A stretch of DNA of 24,000 bases from Defluviitalea saccharophila (GCF_038396635.1 NZ_CP121687.1:2384592-2408591), one strand, 5' to 3'; shown: positions 1 through 20,024, counted from the stretch's first letter. Numbers and translations are program-made. Notes: generated from the sequence alone by a model not told the origin.

Positions 1-2514
1 CAGACGCAGACTAAAACCGAGGCACAACCTCAAAAACCAATCCCGCCCGTTGCGACACCAAAAAGAAAAAGTGCCGCAGCACCGAAAAGAAACGGCGGGC
101 GTAATGCGCTGTGTATTATATTGTCCGTCTTGCTCGTCATACAGACCACTGTGGTGGCGCTCTACGGCTGGCCGGGGTTTATGGTGGGCGGCGGCAAAGA
201 CGCAGTTGTTGAGACCGAAAAGGCGATTGTCTCCACGGATAACGCATCGATCACACTGTCCGGTGTGAGGATTGATATCGATACCTTAAACCTCATTGAC
301 GGTGAAAAGGAACTGACCGTCAGCCGCAAAAAACAATCGGTTGACGAAGCCTCCGGACTTACGTCGGTGGAATATGACATTACTCTGGGAGAAATGCATC
401 ATCTTTACGCACCGCTTACGGTCACCGTTCCATACAACAATAAAACTGCCGACGACGGTGAGGTTGTATTAGAGCATTACAATAGCGATTATGGGATGTG
501 GATACCTCAGAGTACCGTCAACAATGGCGACGGCACGGTCACCGCAAGTCTGACATCCCTTTCGCCAGTGAAGCTCGTATATCTCGGCAAAGATTATCCT
601 ACCGGCGTTTTTTACATCTCTGAAAAGGATTCAAACTATGCAAAGATGATGGTTAGCCATAGATACTGGAATATTATTAAGAATAAACCGCGAGATGACG
701 CTAAAGCAATTGTAAAAGACTTCTTAGAAAATGGAAATACAAAAAATTCCATGCCGTGGGCAGAAAATCTGTTATCGCCTGATGGAATTGATTTGACAAA
801 CAACATATCCGGTATATTCGATGAACTTTTCAACTCAGTAAGTTCGTTAACAGAACTGACGTCTATGCAGATGAGATTCACTACCGAAAAAGTGGCAAAA
901 GGCATCTCTGTTGTTGGTCTTGGGGTAGCATTAACCCAGCTTGGATTGGATCTTTATAATTCAAAAGGAAATGACAGTACTGCGGCAGCAAATCTGTACA
1001 AGAATATCTTTTCGAGCAGTGGCTCATTATTTACCTACATGACCGGGTACGGCTCCCTGCCGTTTTCTGTAGCCTTTTTAGGCGTAGCTGTAGTAAGCTT
1101 CGGATTGGACTATGGTGTCCAAACGGCAGAGGAGTACAAGGAGAAAGTCAACAAAAACATATTTGACCAGTATTTCAAGGATTATGCGAAATTTGACGAA
1201 AAGCACTGGTACAAACTTTTTGTTGATGCATACTGGGATGAATGGCAGAATGGAACGGCATCGGTAGAAGGGATTGAAGCGGCATATAAAACGGTGCTGG
1301 ATGCGATCGAAGGATACTCCGAAGAATTTTGGAAAGACGTATTCAGGGAAGGCAGCGACGCGCTGACCTTTGCTGTAGCCGAAGCCGGTAAAACAAACTA
1401 TTATACACCGACGGAAGACCAGAAGGCGATGTATGTCGAGGAATTTAAAAGGTATATGAATATACGTTTTAAGGAAAAAGTTATACCGTGGATAGAACGA
1501 TTTCTGTTAGAACAGCAGCAGGATGCGCTTTACGCTTCGCTGTATAAGCTCTGTGAACCGTTCAACGAATACTACAGAGTTCAAGTTCAGGAGATTGCAC
1601 CCATAGATTCAGGTGACACTTGCAAATATCAGGAACACACGATACGGTTCGGTAACGAAAGTGGATTCACCCTTATTGATATACCCGACACATGGACGCT
1701 TAATGCGCCACAGGACGATGACCAATGGGCTGTCACAAGTGAATTCACATGTCTTTCATACCTTTTGGCTGGAGCACCGGACAGAATCATGTTGTTTCCT
1801 AAAGACAGCGACGAAACAGACCCAAAAGATGCTGTTTTGACCCAAAAATTTGACTGGTATACGGGCGACGACATATTTGAGGATGACCCGGCGCTGACGC
1901 AGGAATTTAATGCAACGGAAAAGGTCACGGTGATTTCACTAGGACAGATGAGGAAGGACTTTGAATACTATTTGGTTGAAAGATATGACTTAGACCCTCG
2001 TCGCCTCTACTATGACGGCTACGGATATGAAATTATGGCCGTCAAGCGTGATATGCAGTCTAATCGACTTACGGAACATTTGATTAGGGGGATAGATGCG
2101 GAAGTAGAGCAGGATAGCTATCGAGAATACAGTTATGATTCTTCCACTGGATTGCTTACAATGAGTGATGGCCTCGAATATTCGGAACTCAAGCCTAACT
2201 CAGATTGGACGAATATAAGCGGACACCGCTCTTCTCCTGAGTTTCTTCCGGGCAAATGGGGGATGGAGGAAGAGAAAACAGGGAAAATGCTGTATAAATA
2301 TATAAGATACCTTGCAGTAAACCAGCTCTCTCCCGGCAAATGGCAGGTGGATGAGACTGGAGAAACCATTGAATATGTACTTAATTCCTTTGATGCCAGC
2401 GACCAACAATCAAAACGTCTGGAATCTCCTTCGGGACGGAGCTTTCTCGAAGAGGCGCGTTCCTTTGCCACAGAAATGGGCATAGAGATGTATGACGGCC
2501 AAGGATATGATTGA
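1..2514 (+). CDS. Large membrane-anchored protein of unknown function, 5'-truncated by the window edge (837 codons visible)
   Basis: Frame 1 has no stop from nt 1 to the tracker's TTG at 121 (QTQTKTEAQPQKPIPPVATPKRKSAAAPKRNGGRN...), so the real start lies upstream of the window. A basic stretch is followed by a TM helix (ALCIILSVLLVIQTTVVALYGW) and then ~790 aa of mostly hydrophilic sequence. Stop TGA at 2512-2514. I recognise no family. Confidence 0.75.
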   Translation, partial: QTQTKTEAQPQKPIPPVATPKRKSAAAPKRNGGRNALCIILSVLLVIQTTVVALYGWPGFMVGGGKDAVVETEKAIVSTDNASITLSGVRIDIDTLNLIDGEKELTVSRKKQSVDEASGLTSVEYDITLGEMHHLYAPLTVTVPYNNKTADDGEVVLEHYNSDYGMWIPQSTVNNGDGTVTASLTSLSPVKLVYLGKDYPTGVFYISEKDSNYAKMMVSHRYWNIIKNKPRDDAKAIVKDFLENGNTKNSMPWAENLLSPDGIDLTNNISGIFDELFNSVSSLTELTSMQMRFTTEKVAKGISVVGLGVALTQLGLDLYNSKGNDSTAAANLYKNIFSSSGSLFTYMTGYGSLPFSVAFLGVAVVSFGLDYGVQTAEEYKEKVNKNIFDQYFKDYAKFDEKHWYKLFVDAYWDEWQNGTASVEGIEAAYKTVLDAIEGYSEEFWKDVFREGSDALTFAVAEAGKTNYYTPTEDQKAMYVEEFKRYMNIRFKEKVIPWIERFLLEQQQDALYASLYKLCEPFNEYYRVQVQEIAPIDSGDTCKYQEHTIRFGNESGFTLIDIPDTWTLNAPQDDDQWAVTSEFTCLSYLLAGAPDRIMLFPKDSDETDPKDAVLTQKFDWYTGDDIFEDDPALTQEFNATEKVTVISLGQMRKDFEYYLVERYDLDPRRLYYDGYGYEIMAVKRDMQSNRLTEHLIRGIDAEVEQDSYREYSYDSSTGLLTMSDGLEYSELKPNSDWTNISGHRSSPEFLPGKWGMEEEKTGKMLYKYIRYLAVNQLSPGKWQVDETGETIEYVLNSFDASDQQSKRLESPSGRSFLEEARSFATEMGIEMYDGQGYD

Positions 2515-2657
2515 TAACGGGGTATCGAGATGACGGGAAAACAAGACTTGATACGGATAAAGGGCGTGTTTGTGCGGAACAGAATATACGGCGCACTCAA
2601 GTATTTCGGTTTTTATCTGGCAGTATATCGTATCCCATTGCCCGAAAGGAAAATTGT

Positions 2658-3041
2658 ATGAACAGTAAACCTAAGCTTGTGCTTATTAAAATTTCATCCA
2701 TATTGATGCTGCTGGTCGCCATGCCCATGTTCCTGTGGTGCTTGCAGCTTATAGACAACGCGGCACTGGACTACACCTACGCCGGAGCGGGTTGCTTCGC
2801 GGCCGGAATTGCGTACGTATTTTCTATGATAACGGCCATCACTGGGCTTGCCTTTGCGGGGAGGCTCCACCGACATTGCTGGTGTCGGATGCTTGGCTAT
2901 ATCCAACTGGCGGCGGTGGTGCTGCTGATCGTTCCGCTTCACTCATATACCGCACTCACATTACCGCCGCTTTTCCTGCTTACCGTTCTGTATCTGTTTG
3001 GCGTGGGCTGGCGCGAAAAGCTAGATTGCGAACAACAATGA
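2658..3041 (+). CDS. Small polytopic membrane protein (127 aa, ~4 TM), unknown function
   Basis: ATG at 2658 is preceded by AAAGGA (2645-2650). The N-terminus MNSKPKLVLIKISSILMLLVAMPMF is followed by further hydrophobic segments. The tracker's ORF starts at an overlapping TTG (2511), which would add 49 hydrophilic residues. That alternative start cannot be excluded. Confidence 0.55.
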   Translation: MNSKPKLVLIKISSILMLLVAMPMFLWCLQLIDNAALDYTYAGAGCFAAGIAYVFSMITAITGLAFAGRLHRHCWCRMLGYIQLAAVVLLIVPLHSYTALTLPPLFLLTVLYLFGVGWREKLDCEQQ

Positions 3042-3054
3042 AAGGAGCACCGAG

Positions 3055-4383
3055 ATGGCAAAGAAGAAAGCAAACAAAAACATCCCTATTCCCATCCTCA
3101 TCCTTATCTGCGCCGTGTTGCTGCATGCCATATATACCAGCGTCAGCACCCTTGCGCTGGCGATATGGGGCGACAGCGTAATGGGTACGGTGGACAGCTA
3201 TGACAGCCGGCTGGACAACACAAAAGCGGAGCCAAATCGCTCCCGAACCGTTTCCAAGGGATATTGGTTTATAGCAAATGGCAAGGAATACCGGGGCTAT
3301 GTGATATATAGCAGCGACGAGGCTTGGCCAAGCTTGGATGAAGGTGAAACGCGCTCCGAGCGCATCCGCTACCTTAGCTTTTTACCTTATGTGAATAAGC
3401 CCGCCATGCTGTGCGAATTTAGCGAGATGGGCGAAGGGGCAATTATTTACCACATTCTCGCCCCTATCGGTTCTCTGCTTTTGCTGCTGCTTGTCATACG
3501 CACAGCCAGACGAGGGAAAAAGAAGAAACCAGCGGCGAGGAAACCCGCCGCGCCTCAAATATTCGAAGTAAGGAGTGATACGGATATGTTTTGTCCCAAC
3601 TGCGGAAACAAGCTGCCGGAGGGCGCGGCTTTCTGTTCGGGCTGCGGCGCAAAAACACAGGCCAGCGCCCCCGACGTGTGTACGGCCTGCGGCATGGCGC
3701 TGCCGGAGGGAGCCGAATTTTGCATCGGCTGCGGAGCGGCGGTGAACCCGGTAACGCCGCAGCCGATGGAGCCGAGCCAAGCGACAGCTCCTATGCCCTC
3801 ACAGGGGGGCGCGGGGCTGGTCGGCTTTTCCGATAGATGTAATTCACCCGAGATACTGGCCGCCGCGCAGAAGAATAAGAAATCCTCCATCGGTTGTATG
3901 TGGATATTGGTTTTCGTGCCGCTCATCGGCTTTCCCATCGCTGGTCTGCTGATGGACGATTTCCCCTTTGGAGAATCCCTTGTCATCGGCGTGGGCATTG
4001 CTCTTGTCATGCTGGTCATTAACCTTCTGGCGCTGCGAAGAACCAAACAGCCCATGTGGGAGGGAGTAGTCGTCAACAAGTACAGCAAGGAGAAAAGCGA
4101 GCATAGGGGCGGCGAGGACGATAATTACAGAACCTATACGGAATATACTACGATCATCAACACTGACGCGGGAAAGAAAAAGACCATCGTGGAAAAGGAC
4201 AGCGGGCGGCATATGTACGACTATCTCTCCGTTGGCAACAGGGTGCGGTTTCATCCCAAATTCGGTACATACGAGAAGTACGACAAATCTAAAGACCGTA
4301 TCATTTACTGCAATGTCTGCTCCATGATGAACCCCATACAAAATGACCGCTGCAAGCGGTGCAATAATTTATTATTCAAATAA
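3055..4383 (+). CDS. Multi-TM protein with three zinc-ribbon motifs and two DUF3592-like modules, unknown function
   Basis: ATG at 3055 follows AAAGGAG. Domain order:
- TM helix
- beta-rich segment (GTVDSYDS...GKEYRGYVIYSS...)
- TM helix
- K/R-rich linker
- CPNCGNKLPEGAAFCSGCG and CTACGMALPEGAEFCIGCG (zinc_ribbon_2-type CxxC...CxxC)
- two TM helices
- WEGVVVNKYS... domain
- C-terminal CNVCSMMNPIQNDRCKRC. Confidence 0.8.
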   Translation: MAKKKANKNIPIPILILICAVLLHAIYTSVSTLALAIWGDSVMGTVDSYDSRLDNTKAEPNRSRTVSKGYWFIANGKEYRGYVIYSSDEAWPSLDEGETRSERIRYLSFLPYVNKPAMLCEFSEMGEGAIIYHILAPIGSLLLLLLVIRTARRGKKKKPAARKPAAPQIFEVRSDTDMFCPNCGNKLPEGAAFCSGCGAKTQASAPDVCTACGMALPEGAEFCIGCGAAVNPVTPQPMEPSQATAPMPSQGGAGLVGFSDRCNSPEILAAAQKNKKSSIGCMWILVFVPLIGFPIAGLLMDDFPFGESLVIGVGIALVMLVINLLALRRTKQPMWEGVVVNKYSKEKSEHRGGEDDNYRTYTEYTTIINTDAGKKKTIVEKDSGRHMYDYLSVGNRVRFHPKFGTYEKYDKSKDRIIYCNVCSMMNPIQNDRCKRCNNLLFK

Positions 4384-4397
4384 GGAGGCTTTTCATA

Positions 4398-4757
4398 ATG
4401 GATAAATTTAATACTTTGCTGGAGGCGGCACAGCTTGCAGCCACACGTTGCGGAAGCTGGAGCTTTGCCACTTCCGATGATAGATATGATGTAAAAGGTT
4501 TACTGGTGCTTGCCGAGACAAGCGACAGTGAAACCCCCATCGATGAGGACAGCTTTTATGTGGTATCGCGCGCCGGAGCCATCGGCTTATGCGAGGACGG
4601 AGAGGACATCGACTGGCTGTTTCTGACAGGCTCCAGTGAAGATGAGGATTTACCCGCCACCTATCAGGTCGACCCGCAAATAAATTTCTGCCCGAAATGC
4701 GGCTCCGGTGTTGTTTCCGGCGCTCGCTTTTGCGGAAAGTGCGGCAATAGACTCTGA
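4398..4757 (+). CDS. Small acidic protein with a C-terminal zinc ribbon (119 aa)
   Basis: ATG at 4398 follows AAGGAGG. The C-terminus is FCPKCGSGVVSGARFCGKCGNRL (CxxC-x10-CxxC). The N-terminal ~95 aa are acidic and contain no TM segment. Confidence 0.8.
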   Translation: MDKFNTLLEAAQLAATRCGSWSFATSDDRYDVKGLLVLAETSDSETPIDEDSFYVVSRAGAIGLCEDGEDIDWLFLTGSSEDEDLPATYQVDPQINFCPKCGSGVVSGARFCGKCGNRL

Positions 4758-7053: not shown

Positions 7054-7999
7054 ACAGCCATTTTTTTCTTTTAAAAATAATATAGAGGATAATTATAAGC
7101 AGAAACATAATTCCGAGACTCAGTGGATAACCATATTTCCAGCTCAGTTCCGGCATATATTCAAAATTCATTCCATAGATTCCTGTAATCAGTGTAAGGG
7201 GAGCAAAGAAAAGGGCAAGTATCGTCAATCGAGTCACAATGGCATTGGTTTGTGCAGTAAGAACGGATTCGTATAAATATAATAACTGATCCCCCATTTC
7301 TTTTAGACTGGATAAATAATCATAGAGTTTATTCATTCTGATATCGATATTTTTGAAATACCGAACATGGTTCGGTTTTATAAAGCCATTTTCATTGACG
7401 AGAAATTGATCTCCGATATACAAAAGAGGGCGAAGATATTTTTTTAATTGATTGATTTGCATTCTAATAGTGTTTATTTCTATGAATTGCTTTTTCTCTA
7501 CATTCGTGATGATATCCAATTCCAGCCGCTGAAGTTTATCCTCTAGATGTTCTAATGACGAAAAGAAATGACTAAGAATTCGATCAAATATCCAAAAATA
7601 GATTCTGTTGAGTTCGTTCGCAGGATTCTCCATCATATTAATTTTTTGAGTAATATATTTTTCTATTTCATCGATGATAGTGCTTTTTGGTTCCCCTACC
7701 AGAATAATATAGTTAGAACCGATATATAAATTGATTTCTTCAAAAAAAGTTTTATTATCCAAGAAATAAAAGTAGTTTAGACTGATAAAATCATAGTTTT
7801 CATAGCTGTCGAAACGAATATTTTCATCAAAGGTTAAACATTCTTCAATGGTACTGGAATCAAAATGAAATATGGGCTGCAGGAGTTTGATTTCCTTTGT
7901 TAAACATAAAATAAAATAGCTATTGTCTTCACTGTACCAGGAAAGATTATCCGAAATATCTTTAAGAATCTTATTTTGAGTAAGATGATAAATGTTCAT
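7052..7999 (-). CDS. corA: CorA-family magnesium/cobalt transporter
   Basis: C-terminal two TM helices carry the signature YGMNF motif (GIYGMNFEYMPEL). ATG at 7999 follows GAAGGAAAG. The tracker's 8032 start is a TTG without a good RBS. Confidence 0.85.
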   Translation of the reverse strand: MNIYHLTQNKILKDISDNLSWYSEDNSYFILCLTKEIKLLQPIFHFDSSTIEECLTFDENIRFDSYENYDFISLNYFYFLDNKTFFEEINLYIGSNYIILVGEPKSTIIDEIEKYITQKINMMENPANELNRIYFWIFDRILSHFFSSLEHLEDKLQRLELDIITNVEKKQFIEINTIRMQINQLKKYLRPLLYIGDQFLVNENGFIKPNHVRYFKNIDIRMNKLYDYLSSLKEMGDQLLYLYESVLTAQTNAIVTRLTILALFFAPLTLITGIYGMNFEYMPELSWKYGYPLSLGIMFLLIIILYIIFKRKKWL

Positions 8000-8636: not shown

Positions 8637-8907
8637 AATAAGGGATACCTCCACTCTATTATTGACTTATTAAAAGCATATAAAGTCTAAAAATTCTTAG
8701 TAAAAAGAGCCTTTTGCTGTGAAAAAGACTGATACAAATTTACTAATGGAGAAATCGTTTTTTCAGCAAATATAATTGTTGTTTAGGTTAATTTTTTATA
8801 GTAGTATAATTATAGGAGGTTGTCGATTATTGGAACCGATTTTCGTATTATGTAAAAATATGTTTATCTAATGAAGTATATATGGTATAATTGGAAGGAG
8901 CAGGTTA

Positions 8908-9744
8908 ATGGAAGAAGTATCATTGCTAAAGCTAATAATTGTGGGACTTCCTGAGACAGTCTTAAACTTATTAATTGGCCTGGTTTTATGTAGAGATAAT
9001 GTAAAGAAAAACTGGAAAAGCTTCATATTAAAAATGTGCATAAGCGTTATTACTATTTTAATTACAATATTTTTTGTTAGGAGTAATATTAATTCTTTAT
9101 TATGGGTTACTGTATATATGGTATTTGTATATACATCTGTATTTAAATATGTGTGGGAGATGAATTATCGTCAAAGTATTTTATCGGCTTGTAGTACAAT
9201 CTTCTTATTAACTTTTTTGGAAACAATAACACTTCCCTTATATACTATGCTGGTAAAAGGTTTGAACTTCACCAATATTTTTGATGGAGGCATGTTATTC
9301 TCACCTTTAATGAGAACATTACATATTATTGTTTTTTTGATATTAACAAGGTGGAATTTGCGAAACAATGAAGTTATTAGTGGTGAGTGGAGCAGACAAA
9401 ACCAGCATTCTAAGATAGCAATTATTATAATTATTATCTCTATGTTTTGGTGTATGGCATCCATGCTTAATTATGTAGATTTTACTTATAAAATATCAGT
9501 GTTTGAAACTGAGGCATCTTTTCTAGTAGGAAATATAAGATTGGTTTTTTGGATGACGATATGGTTTTTTATCTTTTTGTTGGTACTTGCATATTATATT
9601 TTTAGCTTTTTAGATACACAAAAGATGTTTGATATATCTTTAGAAGAAATCCTTAGCACCGTGGGAGACGAGTTGTCTAAGGAGGAGATCAAAGGATATA
9701 TTGACATACTCCAACAAAAGTATAATGAGAAAAGGGGGGAGTAA
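8908..9744 (+). CDS. 7-TM membrane protein, AgrC-sensor-like topology without a kinase domain (278 aa)
   Basis: RBS GGAAGGAG. There are about seven hydrophobic helices over residues ~5-235, then a 45-aa charged helical tail with no His and no ATPase motifs. The stop TAA (9742-9744) is 1 nt from the agrD ATG. Confidence 0.75.
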   Translation: MEEVSLLKLIIVGLPETVLNLLIGLVLCRDNVKKNWKSFILKMCISVITILITIFFVRSNINSLLWVTVYMVFVYTSVFKYVWEMNYRQSILSACSTIFLLTFLETITLPLYTMLVKGLNFTNIFDGGMLFSPLMRTLHIIVFLILTRWNLRNNEVISGEWSRQNQHSKIAIIIIIISMFWCMASMLNYVDFTYKISVFETEASFLVGNIRLVFWMTIWFFIFLLVLAYYIFSFLDTQKMFDISLEEILSTVGDELSKEEIKGYIDILQQKYNEKRGE

Positions 9745-9745
9745 G

Positions 9746-9877
9746 ATGAAAAGAAGATTACTAGTTATTTTAGGAACAATCGCTACTTTTATGGCTGCTT
9801 TTACCGTTACAGCTGGTGCATGTACAATTTTTCATGGTGAAACTCAGGTTCCTGAAGCACTCCAAAAAGACCTATAA
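9746..9877 (+). CDS. agrD: AgrD-type autoinducing peptide precursor (43 aa). Not in the ORF track
   Basis: Translation: MKRRLLVILGTIATFMAAFTVTAGACTIFHGETQVPEALQKDL. RBS GGGGGGAG. It has an amphipathic/hydrophobic leader, a single Cys followed by 4 residues (CTIFH), and an acidic tail. The tail's Pro is 6 residues after the ring end (GETQVPEAL), the same spacing as S. aureus DEVEVPKEL. Confidence 0.8.
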   Translation: MKRRLLVILGTIATFMAAFTVTAGACTIFHGETQVPEALQKDL

Positions 9878-9885
9878 GAATCAAG

Positions 9886-9913
9886 ATAACGGGAAGCTTT
9901 TCCTTCCCGTTAT
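9886..9913 (+). terminator. Stem-loop after agrD (weak terminator, attenuator or processing site)
   Basis: ataacgggaag / cttcccgttat forms an 11-bp stem with a ~6-nt loop. The downstream U-tract is poor (tctcgtg), so termination is probably partial. Confidence 0.35.
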
Positions 9914-9933
9914 TCTCGTGAAGGGGTGATGTA

Positions 9934-10341
9934 ATGAATGTATTTATCGCTCATCGGGTTCATAATATGCAAAGAGATTTGATCATTGAAAAAACAGAAG
10001 AGTTGTTATCCAAGATTAACTGTACCCAAGACAGTAAAGAGTATTTAAAAACTTTAATTGTAGAATTGGTAACCGGTAATTTTTATTCGATGACAAAAAA
10101 CAAGCAGTGGTCGGTTTATCAGATTTTAAAGATTCGAATAAGACAAAATGAAAGGACCATCTTAAACCATGCGACCAAGGCAATAGAAGACATTCAACTG
10201 GATAATGAAACCAGAAATTGTCTCAATAGTTTAGGCATACAGGGAGAAATAAAAGTAGCTAAGTTTTTAAAGGCAGCTGCACAAGAAGTACAAAAGCAAG
10301 TAGAACAAGAAAAAAGGCAAAAGGGAACTTGGATTGGGTGA
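9934..10341 (+). CDS. Hypothetical cytoplasmic helical protein (135 aa) between agrD and agrB
   Basis: ATG at 9934 is 7 nt after AAGGGG. There is no TM segment and the C-terminus is Lys/Glu-rich. The stop lies 4 nt before the agrB ATG. I recognise no family. Confidence 0.65.
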   Translation: MNVFIAHRVHNMQRDLIIEKTEELLSKINCTQDSKEYLKTLIVELVTGNFYSMTKNKQWSVYQILKIRIRQNERTILNHATKAIEDIQLDNETRNCLNSLGIQGEIKVAKFLKAAAQEVQKQVEQEKRQKGTWIG

Positions 10342-10345
10342 AAAA

Positions 10346-10915
10346 ATGAGTATAATAGACCATACAGCAGAAAAGCTTGCATATCAAATAAAAAAAGCTT
10401 CTCCAAATACGGATGAACAAATAGTAAAATATTATTATACCAGAGTACTTAATCATCTTATTTTTTATTTGATGTGTATACCTTTAATCATTTTGCTGAA
10501 TTTAAAAGTATCTTCATTTATTATTATTTTAATAAGTTATACTCTTTTGCGTAGATGCTTTGGCGGTTCTCATCTTGAAAGCGATATTGGATGTTTAATA
10601 TTAAGTTTGGTAACAATGCTTGGAGGGACTTGGGTATCAAATTACATTAAGCCCTCTATTGCTCTTATTATTGCAATATATATGCTTACTCTTGCAGTAA
10701 TTCAATGGACCGGACTTGTAGATTCCCCTAAAAAAAGAATTGTGAAATTACGGGCGGCATTTATAAGACAAGGCTATTTTACAATCGCCTGCTTAGGCAT
10801 GATTACTTTTATATTATATAGTTTTGATAAGACCAGGGCTATGACAAATCCTGTATTAGTTGGAATAGTCATAGAATTAGTCAGTTTGGTCATTGGGAAA
10901 ATTAGATACAGATAG
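10346..10915 (+). CDS. agrB: AgrB-family AgrD-processing membrane peptidase
   Basis: LLRRCFGGSHLESDIGC has His and Cys 7 residues apart, as in S. aureus AgrB (RRHAHGAHAPSSFWC; catalytic H77/C84). It also has the VDSPKKRI motif and multiple TM helices. ATG at 10346. The tracker's 10334 start is a GTG extension. Confidence 0.85.
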   Translation: MSIIDHTAEKLAYQIKKASPNTDEQIVKYYYTRVLNHLIFYLMCIPLIILLNLKVSSFIIILISYTLLRRCFGGSHLESDIGCLILSLVTMLGGTWVSNYIKPSIALIIAIYMLTLAVIQWTGLVDSPKKRIVKLRAAFIRQGYFTIACLGMITFILYSFDKTRAMTNPVLVGIVIELVSLVIGKIRYR

Positions 10916-10925
10916 GAAGTATAAT

Positions 10926-11165
10926 ATGAATATTTACAAGCTCATTGAAGAGCATGAAGAAGAGTTGAAAAATGATCTTGAAATCAGAATGTCAAATGTT
11001 CTAAACAAACCAATCACCATTTCGGATGAACAGTGGCATAAGATTATTCAGGGAACCATGGAGGACATTGAATATAACATGGTATCCTTTAATAGGGACA
11101 TAGATAAAGAGTATGTGCTTGAAACCATGAAATCAATCATAGAACTTCATATATTAAGAATTTAG
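10926..11165 (+). CDS. Hypothetical small acidic protein (79 aa) downstream of agrB
   Basis: ATG at 10926 is 6 nt after AGGAAG and 10 nt after the agrB stop. The protein (MNIYKLIEEHEEELKNDLE...) is acidic, probably helical, and has no Cys and no TM segment. Confidence 0.6.
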   Translation: MNIYKLIEEHEEELKNDLEIRMSNVLNKPITISDEQWHKIIQGTMEDIEYNMVSFNRDIDKEYVLETMKSIIELHILRI

Positions 11166-11200
11166 AAACCGGTGGAGTTATTTCAGTAACTAAGCCGGTT

Positions 11201-11340
11201 ATTTTATTACATAGGAAATTCCTTCGGATTTCCTATGCAATAAAAAGCCCTTCGGGCAGAATGCACACTCGCGCGCATTGTTTTTGTCGGCTTTGCCGAC
11301 CGCGCTCGGCGCTAGAGCTTCGCTTGCGAAGCTCTTTCTT
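11201..11340. repeat. Structured intergenic repeat, copy B, with two extra hairpins
   Basis: 11201-11291 aligns to 4931-5021. The same hairpin is present, ttattacataggaaat / atttcctatgcaataa (11204-11243), with one A-C mismatch. It is followed by gtcggc-ttt-gccgac (11285-11299) and agagcttcgc/gcgaagctct (11314-11335), then a T-rich run. This probably also serves as the terminator of the agr-region operon. Confidence 0.8.
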
Positions 11341-11420
11341 GTTGCCACTTTTTTATAGTATACATATCCTATATACTTTTTACACAAAATAAAAAGAAAA
11401 TTTGTATAGGAGAGACTGAA

Positions 11421-18360: not shown

Positions 18361-19680
18361 TTATGGTCTTTGATCATCGACATTGGCATTGCTATTGTTT
18401 GCACTTAAAACACTTGTAGGGTCATAGTACGGTGAGTTCAAAGGTACGCTAGGAAGCAATGCTATATCGACGGCATTTTCCGGAATACCCCATGAGTTGC
18501 CTGAGAATACAAATTCAGCATTATCTACAACGAATCCACGAGTATTATAAACCACATTGTTTACAATATGCCCGCTCGTACCTGGATTTAAATAGGCAGG
18601 CTGACGAAGAGAATAAAATATATTATTTTGAACCAATAGATTCTGCATATTATTTGCTTGTGGGACAAAACCTCGGTTGACTACCCACCCAGTAGATGGA
18701 CCTGCTTGTGGAGGACCCCAAATGGTATTATTAATAATTCTGTGGTTTGTTCCCCCAATTTGGATAAATTCAAATGGATAAGGATCATCACTGGTGATAT
18801 TCAGTCCGTCGATGGTAATTCCATTTCCGGTGACTAAAAATAGTATGGTAGAAGCTTGCAGCTCAATCAATGTGTTGGGGTATCCTTTTAGAGTAATCCC
18901 GGGTTTATTAACGCTGATTGTCTCAGTAATCGGATAAGGTCCGCCCAATATATGAACAGTACCTGTTGGTGCAACAGCTTGAATCCCTTCCTGAATAGTG
19001 CCAAAAGGCTTGGATTGAGAGCCATTTCCATCAACTGCTCCAGCTTGAACATATACTTCATATGGATTAACGGCAGCAGATTCTTCGGGCAGAATGTGTG
19101 TAATAATTAGATGGGCTGAAACAGGACTATTTCCTCCGGCATTAGAAGTGATGGTTAAAGAGTTTGCATTGCCGCTGGGATTTCGTATCGTGAGCACCGA
19201 ATCGGCTTCTGTTGTCGTTATAAAAGTCATTCCTACAATCTGTGACGAGCCTGTTTCTCGCCCCACCACCGTATACTCCAGTTCTTGATCGTTAAGGGTT
19301 ATTACCAGTTGCCCTTCTTCACTGACGCTTACCTGGAAGAAAACCTGATAAGTGCCAATTTCAGCTAAGTTAAATGTATTGGGGCCAGTACGCGTAATGG
19401 TAGTTCCGCCAGTAGGTCCATCTTGAGGAAAGTTTACATTTTGACCGGGAGCAATGGGATCAGGATTATCTGTGCCCATCAACGCATAAAAATCGGCATA
19501 TGCGGATATTCCACCGCCAGGTGGTCCTGGAGGACCTTGTAATCCTTCCGGCCCCATTGGTCCTCGCGGACCCGGAAATCCTCTTGGTCCTCTTGGACCC
19601 CTTGGTCCTGCTGGTCCAGGAGGGCCAGAACTGCCGGGACAGTATTTACGATAAGGCCTGGGGCAATAATCACTGCTCAT
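18361..19680 (-). CDS. Collagen-like protein: short GXY stalk, BclA-C/C1q-like domain and a C-terminal right-handed beta-helix-like domain (439 aa)
   Basis: ATG at 19680 follows [23 protein letters not shown] is followed by 14 GXY triplets. The next region, ...[38 protein letters not shown]...[21 protein letters not shown]...AHLIITHI, resembles exosporium BclA C-terminal domains. The C-terminal ~180 aa have periodic NN(T/I/V)(I/V) repeats ([29 protein letters not shown]), as in pectate-lyase-fold beta-helices. The tracker's upstream 63 codons are an artefact. Confidence 0.8.
19510..19635 (-). repeat. Collagen-type GXY triplet repeat (14 triplets) within the CDS
   Basis: [42 protein letters not shown]. 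This is a locally GC-rich tandem 9-nt periodicity. Confidence 0.9.
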
Positions 19681-20024
19681 AAAAATACTACCTCCTTTAA
19701 TATTGAATAAGATTTTGGACGGGTCAGAGCAAATTTTGAGAATGTACAAAGTATGCAAAACCGATGAGATAATACTTATATAATAGATGTATGCAAAAAA
19801 ACATATTATGTGATAGTCCGCTAAGCCTCCATACTTTGCAGTATGGAGACTTTTTGCAAAAATGTACAATAAAAACCAAAAATGACCTATTCAATTTATG
19901 GAATATACATGATAGCATAAAATTGAAACTAAAATACAAATTTAATCTTCAGGTGATATTGATGCGTAGGTGTAAAATGAATCAATATCGAAGGTTAAAT
20001 ATTCATTTCAAGGGGGAGAACGGT

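Follow-up and report, generated by a model that had tools for sequence, protein, structure and literature searches.

Known agr-type systems and the locus studied

The canonical agr locus, agrBDCA, is found in Staphylococcus aureus, Listeria, C. acetobutylicum and C. difficile (agr2), and many Clostridia carry agrBD without a cognate agrCA. Orphan loci of this kind include C. difficile agr1, C. perfringens CPE1563-CPE1562-agrB-agrD and C. botulinum agr-1 and agr-2. In C. perfringens, hypothetical genes are co-transcribed with agrBD (PMC2706048) and the orphan peptide is sensed via the unlinked VirS (PMC7492741). For orphan clostridial AgrD peptides the receptor is admittedly missing, the one for C. 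difficile AgrD1 being explicitly described as unidentified, and agr has been linked with sporulation (PMC10602386). Phages have communication systems of their own: phiCDHM1 has agrB and agrD together with a genuine agrC kinase, and arbitrium uses an intracellular RRNPP-type receptor.

Here we describe an agr-type cassette in a 24-kb stretch of the chromosome (hereafter, the window) of Defluviitalea saccharophila, a heat-loving Clostridia bacterium with a 3.0 Mb genome. It shares with canonical agrBDCA the His-x6-Cys dyad of AgrB, an AgrD cysteine that precedes the acidic E-x-x-P-x-x-L tail by five residues, one operon encoding both a polytopic membrane protein and a putative DNA-binding protein, and an upstream operator, probably autoregulatory. 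Unlike the canonical loci, it has the gene order 7TM-D-X-B-Y, lacks a HisKA/HATPase kinase, a receiver and a LytTR domain, and its predicted output domain has a Spo0A_C-like fold rather than that of LytTR. Signalling in this clade would have to be phosphorylation-independent.

Like the orphan agrBD loci, the cassette has no recognisable agrCA. It differs from them in that its companion genes can be assigned, to a 7TM family and an output domain derived from regulators, each of them conserved together with agrD in many loci, while C. perfringens makes use of an unlinked VirS/VirR pair. Relatives of the cassette on a viral contig and on integrase elements recall the phage systems; the copy in the window is chromosomal, with housekeeping genes on either side.

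Organisation and conservation of the cassette

The cassette (8908-11165, plus strand) comprises, in this order, the genes for a seven-helix membrane protein (7TM) and an AgrD-like peptide, a hairpin, and the genes for a soluble protein X, AgrB and a small protein Y. Five same-strand genes with a hairpin had been predicted here from the sequence alone; all coordinates and spacings agree with that layout, and the region also proved to be the most AT-rich of the window, where GC content is lowest (0.276) at 9001-9500. Profile searches of the ORFs of the 24-kb window gave no match to HATPase_c, HisKA, Response_reg or LytTR, confirming the predicted absence of an AgrC kinase or LytTR regulator. Rfam had no match on the whole window or on the cassette. 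Among the other products of the window is a BclA-like exosporium protein, which makes sporulation of the host probable.

Orthologues of the cassette are present on at least eight other contigs. Compared with two orthologous loci (dS ~1), all five genes have dN/dS values of 0.05-0.25 (0.17-0.25 for 7TM, 0.05-0.09 for X and 0.07-0.21 for Y). The five genes are therefore real rather than chance ORFs, and all of them are under purifying selection.

Two related loci came from the genome scan and three from the metagenome scan; the annotated phage and plasmid collections contained no homologue of P0033 or P0045. The related loci (numbered with L below) span at least six unrelated genomic contexts. 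Sister cassettes are carried by a viral contig of 138 kb from IMG/VR (L012/L017) and by elements with integrase, MrpR and PemK (L010, L016). agrD lies directly 3' of the 7TM gene, at a distance of 1 nt or overlapping it, in all 15 of the 15 independent loci. agrB is adjacent in most loci, but not in L011 and L014. The five-gene order is kept in orthologous loci and in one locus with different flanks. Comparison of neighbourhoods thus supports the suggested association of the companion genes with agrBD for two of them: every related locus examined has 7TM and the protein in the X slot linked to agrD and, in the usual case, to agrB as well, and Y is only clade-specific.

In L009, L010 and L016 the X slot is taken by a full receiver-containing response regulator; in L012/L013 a 105-aa protein (p105/p104) is found there. 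The receivers of these regulators have Spo0A as their best NCBIfam match. Members of the 7TM family are either short (~280 aa) or long (~400-420 aa), the latter carrying an extra cytoplasmic domain of ~135 aa. Long forms pair with receiver-containing regulators; the partner of the short forms is mostly X, which has no receiver. The response regulators keep intact phospho-acceptor residues, yet kinase motifs, a GHKL signature and a conserved His are all missing from the long 7TM forms.

The AgrD-like precursor and AgrB

The agrD-like gene (9746-9877, plus strand) begins 1 nt past the 7TM stop codon. Its 43 codons encode a 43-aa peptide, MKRRLLVILGTIATFMAAFTVTAGAC-TIFH followed after the predicted cut by GETQVPEALQKDL. 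The predicted ring is a five-residue thiolactone, CTIFH, the residues around the cut being CTIFH and GETQVPEAL. The peptide has the features of the AgrD type: a hydrophobic leader, the ring cysteine (...AGAC-TIFH), a five-residue ring and an acidic tail containing a proline. A motif C-x4-G-E/D-x(1-3)-P-x2-L is located directly 3' of the 7TM gene in every related locus. With the AgrD profile TIGR04223 the window peptide scored 17.5 bits against a cut-off of 19, the L003 orthologue scored 23.4 bits, and other loci gave 12-17 bits or no match. Judged by its sequence, the peptide is AgrD-like.

agrB (10346-10915, plus strand), with its ATG at 10346, 4 nt past the stop codon of X, encodes a 189-aa protein which matches PF04647 with 71 bits (E 1e-19, cut-off 23) over 181 of the 185 profile positions. 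The catalytic residues of S. aureus AgrB, H77 and C84, are seven residues apart. The corresponding His-x6-Cys dyad is intact in the window protein (GGSHLESDIGC), and the pattern R..GG.H-x6-C..S is invariant across 10 cassette AgrBs. By sequence, then, this protein is a true AgrB family member; by analogy, it is a membrane cysteine peptidase predicted to cleave and cyclise AgrD. Profile searches thus bear out the original assignment of AgrB; for AgrD, the L003 orthologue exceeds the cut-off and the window peptide stays under it.

X, a Spo0A_C-like protein

X (9934-10341, plus strand), the proposed output regulator, is a basic (pI 9.3), all-helical protein of 135 aa with an invariant KGTWIG at its C-terminus. 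It belongs to no Pfam or NCBIfam family and does not match Response_reg; LytTR was found neither in X nor in the related regulators nor in the whole window. The AF2 model of X (pLDDT 81, built on a 7-sequence alignment) was compared with known folds by Foldseek. The best PDB matches were to the Spo0A C-domain (1lq1_D, prob 0.87, TM 0.47/0.55; 1fc3_A, prob 0.82), and in BFVD three Spo0A_C-annotated phage proteins ranked 1, 3 and 11 (prob 0.93-1.00, TM 0.52-0.60). Such stand-alone phage proteins are receiver-less, as X is.

Homology of X to Spo0A_C at the sequence level was rejected, as the comparisons were not significant: there was no Pfam match to PF08769 at E <= 10, hmmsearch against the PDB did not return Spo0A, and hhalign with the 1LQ1/1FC3 sequences gave E 0.035-0.17. 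Matches to TIGR02875 were weak (E 0.01). The base-contacting residues of the Spo0A recognition helix are not conserved in X in an alignment made by eye. X also differs from the Spo0A C-domain in its additional KGTWIG terminus and in being encoded inside a peptide-signalling operon; besides the six-helix fold, the two are connected by TGTCGAA boxes 5' of the cassettes and by the Spo0A-like receivers of related cassettes. The model suggests that X is a stand-alone Spo0A_C-like DNA-binding domain, a six-helix fold with a helix-turn-helix, the likeness being at the level of the fold only. An initial assignment to RpoA-CTD-like helix-hairpin-helix proteins, guessed from 'RNCLNSLGI', was dropped when the fold searches led to Spo0A_C. 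The idea that X or Y is a split-off C-terminal domain of the long 7TM forms was rejected, with hhalign negative.

A closer relationship was found within the related cassettes. Aligned by hhalign with the C-termini of the related response regulators and p105/p104, X gave 93% and E 2.9e-7, and a blastp chain (1e-8 and 2e-3) links it to the same output domains. Comparison with the L009 regulator alone was negative, the relation appearing only when several output domains were combined into a small profile. By this evidence X and the output domain of the response regulators that hold the same slot are homologues. This homology and the Spo0A_C-like fold fit the expected transduction partner.

Candidate promoters and operator, and RNA elements

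A Spo0A-box-like heptamer TGTCGAT (consensus TGTCGAA) is located at 8821-8827 (plus strand), and a weaker box, TTTTCGTA, follows 13 nt after it. The heptamer is a candidate operator for X and/or the host Spo0A. In divergent loci a Spo0A-type box is found 76-124 nt 5' of the 7TM start, and the exact TGTCGAA is present in L001, L004, L011, L012 (twice), L010 (twice) and L016. Upstream of the 7TM gene, 7 exact boxes were observed against 0.077 expected in 891 nt (Poisson 3e-12), a ~90-fold enrichment at -140 to -60 relative to this gene; inside the window alone there is no enrichment. The conserved TGTCGAA boxes could be sites of the host Spo0A.

Two plus-strand elements, read from the sequence, are candidate cassette promoters: an extended -10-like TGgTATAAT (8883-8891) just 5' of the ribosome-binding site and a second TATAAT (8805-8810). 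A TATAAT-like hexamer is kept upstream of related loci at the position equivalent to 8883-8891.

The GC-rich hairpin between agrD and X (9885-9914, plus strand; 12-bp stem, -18.4 kcal/mol) recurs at the same position, with a different sequence, in 10 of 12 loci. It is likely a partial terminator or stabiliser setting the ratio of 7TM-agrD to X-agrB-Y transcripts. We propose that it lowers read-through, so that the cell would produce more 7TM and precursor than X, AgrB and Y. Downstream of Y, a structured GC-rich region (11166-11345, plus strand) includes a terminator-like hairpin at 11314-11335 with a T-run, found in the terminator scan; the RNA fold z-score is -7.25 for 11166-11420. This is the probable end of the operon.

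The 7TM protein and Y

The ORF at 8908-9744 (plus strand) encodes the 278-aa 7TM, the proposed receptor of the cyclic peptide. It matches no Pfam or NCBIfam family, its model found nothing meaningful in the PDB with Foldseek (TM <= 0.27), and no similarity to AgrC or to a solved structure could be detected. The family is rare (74 clusters among 1.84 billion representatives). Literature searches returned no description of it; it is a previously undescribed family which always accompanies agrD in the loci examined.

The AF2 model of 7TM, of moderate confidence (pLDDT 68.7), has seven long helices, a trait expected of an AgrC-type polytopic sensor (6-7 TM). K/R-rich loops lie on one face, so by the positive-inside rule an N-out/C-in topology is predicted, leaving an acidic tail of 43 aa in the cytoplasm. 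In the close clade conservation is lower in the outer than in the inner half (p = 2e-9), and three polar residues predicted to be embedded in the membrane, E16, R58 and R136, are invariant. A phospho-accepting His (DHp) is absent from the 43-aa tail and none is conserved in the tail/C-extension of the long forms; the GHKL ATPase domain is missing from the 278-aa protein. A degenerate GHKL kinase domain in the long-form C-extension was considered and dropped, as neither Pfam nor the PDB gave a kinase match at E <= 10 and a conserved His is missing. The position of 7TM, its topology and the way it is conserved suggest that it is a peptide receptor.

Y (10926-11165, plus strand), starting 10 nt past the agrB stop, is an acidic (pI 4.7) 79-aa protein with a conserved IS-x-DQW motif and no family match in Pfam or NCBIfam. 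Its orthologues occur in L001-L003, L018, L020 and L011 (p79, blastp 2e-8). It is absent from L004 and L014, and other proteins take its place elsewhere; a relationship to the accessory proteins p136/p195/p189 or to p261 of L006 was sought with negative result. We regard Y as accessory and specific to the clade; it may modulate X.

Proposed signalling and alternative explanations

We give slightly better than even chances to the cassette being a functional agr-type quorum-sensing operon in which AgrC and AgrA are replaced by a different two-protein module, with 7TM as the receptor and X as the output. Against this reading speak the failure to detect similarity of 7TM to AgrC or solved structures, the intact phospho-acceptors of the related regulators beside long forms with no kinase signature, the fold-only likeness of X to Spo0A_C, the chance that the boxes are host Spo0A sites, the two loci with no neighbouring agrB and the possibility of a distal AgrC-like kinase. 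The non-canonical receptor module of the original prediction is supported by the conserved linkage of 7TM and X and by the homology of X to output domains, 7TM presumably being the sensor. By analogy with S. aureus agr, AgrB would cut AgrD after His30 and close the thiolactone C-T-I-F-H, some other peptidase removing the leader. The peptide would then bind to the variable outer face of 7TM, whose conserved cytoplasmic loops and acidic tail may bind or release X, the signal passing by protein-protein contact and not by phosphotransfer. In E. coli, the polytopic membrane protein PtsG controls the soluble DNA-binding protein Mlc in a comparable way, by direct binding and without phosphotransfer to Mlc. 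This is a functional analogy only, with no homology, and the contact between 7TM and X is hypothetical.

We speculate that X acts at Spo0A-box-like sites. One of them would be the conserved box in front of the cassette itself, making the operon autoinducible; further targets might belong to the sporulation and stationary-phase regulon. Y may be an acidic modulator specific to the clade, possibly an antagonist of X. The module could be a reduced form of an ancestral pair made up of a long 7TM, with its ~135-aa cytoplasmic domain, and a full response regulator with an X-type output domain.

Alternatively, 7TM could serve in maturation, export or self-protection, for example as a leader peptidase like MroQ, which has this role in S. 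aureus, with X regulating the operon locally and the peptide sensed by an unlinked AgrC/VirS-type kinase. We allow this explanation a modest chance. 7TM-agrD is the tightest pair of the cassette in all 15 loci, 7TM-agrD-X persists without an adjacent agrB in two of them, and E16, R58 and R136 could line a peptide channel or an active site. However, a protease of the CPBP/MroQ type was dropped, as its motif set is missing: 7TM contains neither an invariant His or Cys nor the CPBP EExxxR/FxxxH pattern, and PF02517 does not match it. Also, the conserved face of 7TM is the cytoplasmic one, and co-occurrence of the long-form cytoplasmic domain with receiver-bearing regulators fits signalling better than export. 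Sensing through an unlinked kinase has its precedent in C. perfringens VirS (PMC7492741), but the related cassettes encode a response regulator which has no other candidate partner in cis.

An improbable explanation is that of a stationary-phase peptide operon controlled by host Spo0A~P bound at TGTCGAA, X being a Spo0A_C-like competitor or decoy and the peptide acting outward (in interference, as an antimicrobial or as a phage or mobile-element signal), without a receptor in cis. In many loci the boxes are identical to the canonical Spo0A consensus, the base-contacting residues of Spo0A are not obviously conserved in X when aligned by eye, and the exosporium protein points to a sporulating host. 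Stand-alone Spo0A_C proteins of phages and the versions of the cassette on the phage contig and integrase-bearing elements agree with such a role as well. However, the invariable coupling of agrD to a 7TM with a conserved cytoplasmic face is left unexplained, and so is the co-variation of long 7TM forms with the receiver domains of regulators.

Decay of a two-component agr system, with the receptor stripped of a kinase-like domain, the regulator of its receiver and signalling gone, would account for the domain loss relative to cassettes with long forms and response regulators, but is very improbable indeed, being largely refuted by the purifying selection on all five genes and opposed by an architecture kept across several lineages and genomic contexts, the intact AgrB dyad and the conservation of the regulatory box and hairpin.

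Implications

The two-protein module of 7TM and X makes this locus a concrete candidate for the sensing of orphan clostridial peptides. One could go further and suppose that the 7TM class directly gates a receiver-less Spo0A-type protein on 0A boxes, wiring density into the Spo0A regulon without a phosphorelay, and that the versions carried by phages and mobile elements could read or manipulate the sporulation decision of the host; we consider this extension rather unlikely. With sister cassettes carried by a phage genome and by integrative elements, the idea of peptide communication in mobile elements reaches beyond arbitrium. If the proposed reading is true, 7TM would add a new class to the receptors of cyclic peptide pheromones, and the cassette would be a two-component pathway reduced to a sensor and an effector domain, which would connect quorum sensing directly, at the molecular level, with gene control of the Spo0A type.

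Organisation of the cassette

The window is chromosomal DNA of Defluviitalea saccharophila: its 278-aa 7TM product matches, at 100% identity, a protein of that species in NCBI, encoded on a 3.01-Mb contig. Every detail of the original prediction of a five-gene layout, spacings included, was borne out by the ORF list and sequence. On the plus strand, the 7TM gene (8908-9744) is followed after 1 nt by a 43-codon agrD-type ORF (9746-9877), a GC-rich hairpin with a 12-bp stem (9885-9914), the gene of the 135-aa soluble protein X (9934-10341), agrB (ATG at 10346, end at 10915, 4 nt past the X stop) and the gene of the 79-aa acidic protein Y (10926-11165, 10 nt past the agrB stop). The cassette lies, as had been claimed, in the most AT-rich part of the window (GC minimum of 0.276 at 9001-9500), and the histidine-kinase, receiver and LytTR models had no match among the larger ORFs of the 24 kb, in line with the predicted lack of a kinase or LytTR regulator there.

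The 189-aa protein matches Pfam AgrB (71 bits) and keeps the R..GG.H-x6-C..S motif, invariant in 10/10 cassette AgrBs compared; the motif includes the His/Cys pair that is catalytic in S. aureus AgrB. The assignment of agrD held in part: on TIGR04223 (cut-off 19 bits) the 43-aa window peptide, MKRRLLVILGTIATFMAAFTVTAGAC-TIFH-GETQVPEALQKDL, falls just below at 17.5 bits, and its orthologue in the related locus L003 passes with 23.4 bits. Staphylococcal AgrD, taken as a model, predicts a thiolactone product whose ring is C-T-I-F-H. The predicted rings vary among loci (CTIFH, CSIFH, CTSFY, CGFVH, CSYTY, CATGQ, CMIIW, CGGSW, CGAIL, CGYIW).

Its AgrB/AgrD core makes the cassette an agr-type system, but the features that define AgrC (DHp His, GHKL domain) and AgrA (receiver, LytTR) are missing from it. 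It resembles the orphan agrBD loci of clostridia, such as that of C. perfringens with its companion hypothetical genes CPE1563/CPE1562 (PMC2706048); in C. difficile the receptor of AgrD1 is still open in the literature (PMC10602386). Our literature search found no description of the 7TM family or of a link between a Spo0A_C-like protein and agrD.

Elsewhere in the window, a 797-aa ORF and an overlapping 176-aa ORF (121-3041) both lack a Pfam match, and the 3001-4400 region, encoding zinc-ribbon proteins, has a GC content of 0.52-0.59, unusually high for this genome. The 255-nt spacer past Y (11166-11420) is GC-rich, folds strongly into several hairpins (MFE -87 kcal/mol, z = -7.25) and has no Rfam match; in the orthologous L002 and L003 it is about half as long (110-122 nt). 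An inserted repeat element, a stack of terminators or a small RNA could account for it.

The 7TM family

A close-clade 7TM profile run against 1.84 billion representative proteins retrieved no more than 74 clusters, of which 64 reach E <= 1e-10. No cluster carries a Pfam annotation; almost all are metagenomic, one coming from Petroclostridium sp. X23. Fourteen members are long (387-464 aa) and carry an additional C-terminal cytoplasmic domain of ~135 aa, for which neither Pfam nor PDB has a match and in which no His is conserved. Seven residues (P15, E16, R58, N86, R88, P110 and R136) are invariant in a 16-sequence alignment that spans the family. The AF2 model, built on a shallow alignment, has seven long helices (pLDDT 68.7), and a PDB search with it found no structural neighbour. 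Since all K/R-rich loops are on the same side, the predicted topology is N-out/C-in; the protein ends in an acidic tail of 43 aa (pI 4.5).

Sequence conservation in the close clade is clearly lower for the predicted outer half than for the inner (0.71 vs 0.85, p = 2e-9). Such a variable outer face is the pattern expected for a receptor whose ligand face diversifies with the peptide, and the rings do differ among loci. Alternatively, 7TM may serve in peptide maturation, export or immunity while a distal kinase is the receptor; we hold this to be rather unlikely.

X as a regulator output domain

Neither Pfam nor NCBIfam has a family match for X. In L009, L010 and L016 its slot is filled by a canonical receiver-containing regulator, in which the DD pair, phospho-acceptor Asp, Ser and Lys are present, and in L012/L013 by proteins of 104-105 aa. 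The X profile aligns with the regulator C-termini and these small proteins over 93 columns (hhalign, 93% probability, E 2.9e-7), and blastp links the regulator with p104 (1e-8) and X with p105 (2e-3). These alignments show X to be homologous to response-regulator output domains.

The AF2 model of X, also built on a shallow alignment, has six helices (pLDDT 81), and its best PDB fold matches are to the Spo0A DNA-binding domain: 1lq1_D (prob 0.87, TM 0.47/0.55) and 1fc3_A. In the viral structure library BFVD, Spo0A_C-annotated proteins take ranks 1, 3 and 11 (prob 0.93-1.00, TM 0.52-0.60). TIGR02875 (Spo0A) gives weak matches to the window X and to protein P0014, and the best NCBIfam match of the L009 receiver is Spo0A. 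As no sequence-level test of X against Spo0A_C was significant, we call X Spo0A_C-like by its modelled fold, not a PF08769 member. X is basic (pI 9.3) and ends in an invariant KGTWIG, missing from the regulator homologues. A stand-alone X paralogue (L005, 191-604; 59% identity) has the KGTWIG end, its own upstream non-coding region and a peroxiredoxin gene 3', with no agrB; L005 and L001 come from one metagenome sample.

Regulatory DNA

The canonical Spo0A box is TGTCGAA. Divergent loci have it 76-124 nt upstream of the 7TM start: as a single exact copy (L001, L004, L011), as two inverted (L012) or tandem (L010) copies, or as one exact copy in tandem with a TATCGAA variant (L016). A box with one mismatch is present in the window (TGTCGAT, 8821-8827), in L003 and in L019; L002 and L020 have TGTCGAC. 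The stretches upstream of 7TM contain 7 exact heptamers in 891 nt, where the remainder of these loci predicts 0.077 (Poisson 3e-12). Inside the window alone the motif is not enriched, the signal coming from its conserved position across loci. The sole exact TGTCGAA of the window (7807-7813) lies ~1.1 kb before the cassette, inside the CorA gene on the opposite strand, and probably arose by chance.

On either side of the box is a conserved TATAAT element, at 8805-8810 and at 8883-8891. For a promoter at 8805-8810, the box would follow closely after the start site, a repressing position; for the candidate promoter at 8883-8891, it would be at about -72, an activating position, and the leader would be only ~13 nt. 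The box could be read by X or by host Spo0A~P, possibly in competition. A 502-aa protein with collagen-like repeats and an exosporium-type BclA_C domain (18361-19869, minus strand) suggests that the host forms spores, which bears on this reading. Alternatively, Spo0A might control the cassette as a peptide operon, with X as a decoy of Spo0A and no receptor in cis, a reading we consider improbable.

A GC-rich hairpin follows agrD in 10/12 loci examined. Its position is kept and its sequence is not, which suggests a functional attenuator or stabiliser.

Conservation and related loci

Orthologous five-gene cassettes with the flanks of the window (CorA and Amidase_6 upstream, DAO-Rieske oxidoreductase downstream) were found in L002, L003, L018 and L020, and L001 has all five genes between unrelated flanks (PMI, Fic) at 44% 7TM identity. 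Other loci contain 7TM-agrD-X-agrB lacking Y (L004/L015, a MAG, adjoining dpaAB), 7TM-agrD-X-Y with no agrB within 6 kb (L011), 7TM-agrD-X only (L014), 7TM-agrD-p105/p104-agrB-p195/p189 (L012/L013), 7TM-agrD-response regulator-agrB (L009, whose agrD is not among the called genes), long 7TM-agrD-response regulator(-agrB) (L010, L016) or agrB-long 7TM-agrD-p261 (L006-8). An agrD-type ORF lies directly 3' of the 7TM gene in 15/15 independent loci, a sample of about 15 from a family of 74 clusters. The predicted linkage holds for 7TM and, in many loci, for X, always to agrD and usually to agrB; Y, with its IS-x-DQW motif, is confined to the window clade, L001 and L011. The mobile-element cassettes have a different family 3' of agrB (p136/p195/p189), for which hhalign showed no relation to Y.

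AgrB, 7TM and X identities drop in parallel from locus to locus, which is consistent with inheritance of the cassette as a single unit. Against L002 and L003 (dS about 1), dN/dS is 0.17-0.25 for 7TM, 0.09-0.17 for agrD, 0.05-0.09 for X, 0.16-0.21 for agrB and 0.07-0.21 for Y. From these ratios we conclude that all five genes are functional; they contradict a decaying remnant, to which we give almost no credence.

In the close relative L019 (3501-5765), a sugar-kinase-like gene, its 5' end apparently missing, replaces X-agrB-Y past 7TM-agrD and the hairpin; this is either a deletion/rearrangement variant or a chimeric assembly. MAG GCA_022360955.1 holds two systems, the short-form 7TM-agrD-X without agrB (L014, 5001-6437) and agrB-long 7TM-agrD-p261 (L006, 3634-6510). 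AgrB may serve the second precursor in trans. By eye, p261 shows a receiver-like pattern (KVLVLG...YDIAIVD) in its N-terminal half.

A sister cassette, 7TM-agrD-p105-agrB-p195 (L012/L017, 6001-8638), lies on a 137,947-bp contig listed as viral by IMG/VR (IMGVR_UViG_3300042923_000524), amid many small ORFs, a TnpB-like gene, SLT and dNMP kinase; it would amount to a kinase-less agr-type module carried by a phage. L013 (6001-8606) resembles it and has a LAGLIDADG gene and a resolvase. L010 (1-12643) and L016 (1-7636), with long 7TM and response regulator, share a tyrosine integrase, PemK toxin, TPR protein and MrpR-type recombinase as neighbours, L010 also having a TIR/SEFIR protein; these two cassettes are probably on one family of integrative or plasmid-like elements.

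Possible signalling mechanism

The four core genes map one-to-one to agrB, agrD, a membrane protein and a DNA-binding protein, and we favour 7TM as the peptide receptor and X as the output. Gene content, linkage, the box, selection, and the fold of X and its homology to output domains are observations, from which the signalling steps are inferred. In the simplest model, basic X would be bound or let go by 7TM, through the conserved loops on its cytoplasmic side and its acidic tail; the KGTWIG end of X may be the point of contact, and acidic Y would be a second binder. Receiver-bearing regulators accompany the long 7TM forms (L010, L016); the short forms go with X, p105 or p104, which have no receiver, in at least 10 loci, L009 being the exception. 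Because of this pairing, the additional 7TM domain and the receiver look like interacting partners that were lost together. Signalling in the Defluviitalea clade, we infer, must be phosphorylation-independent.
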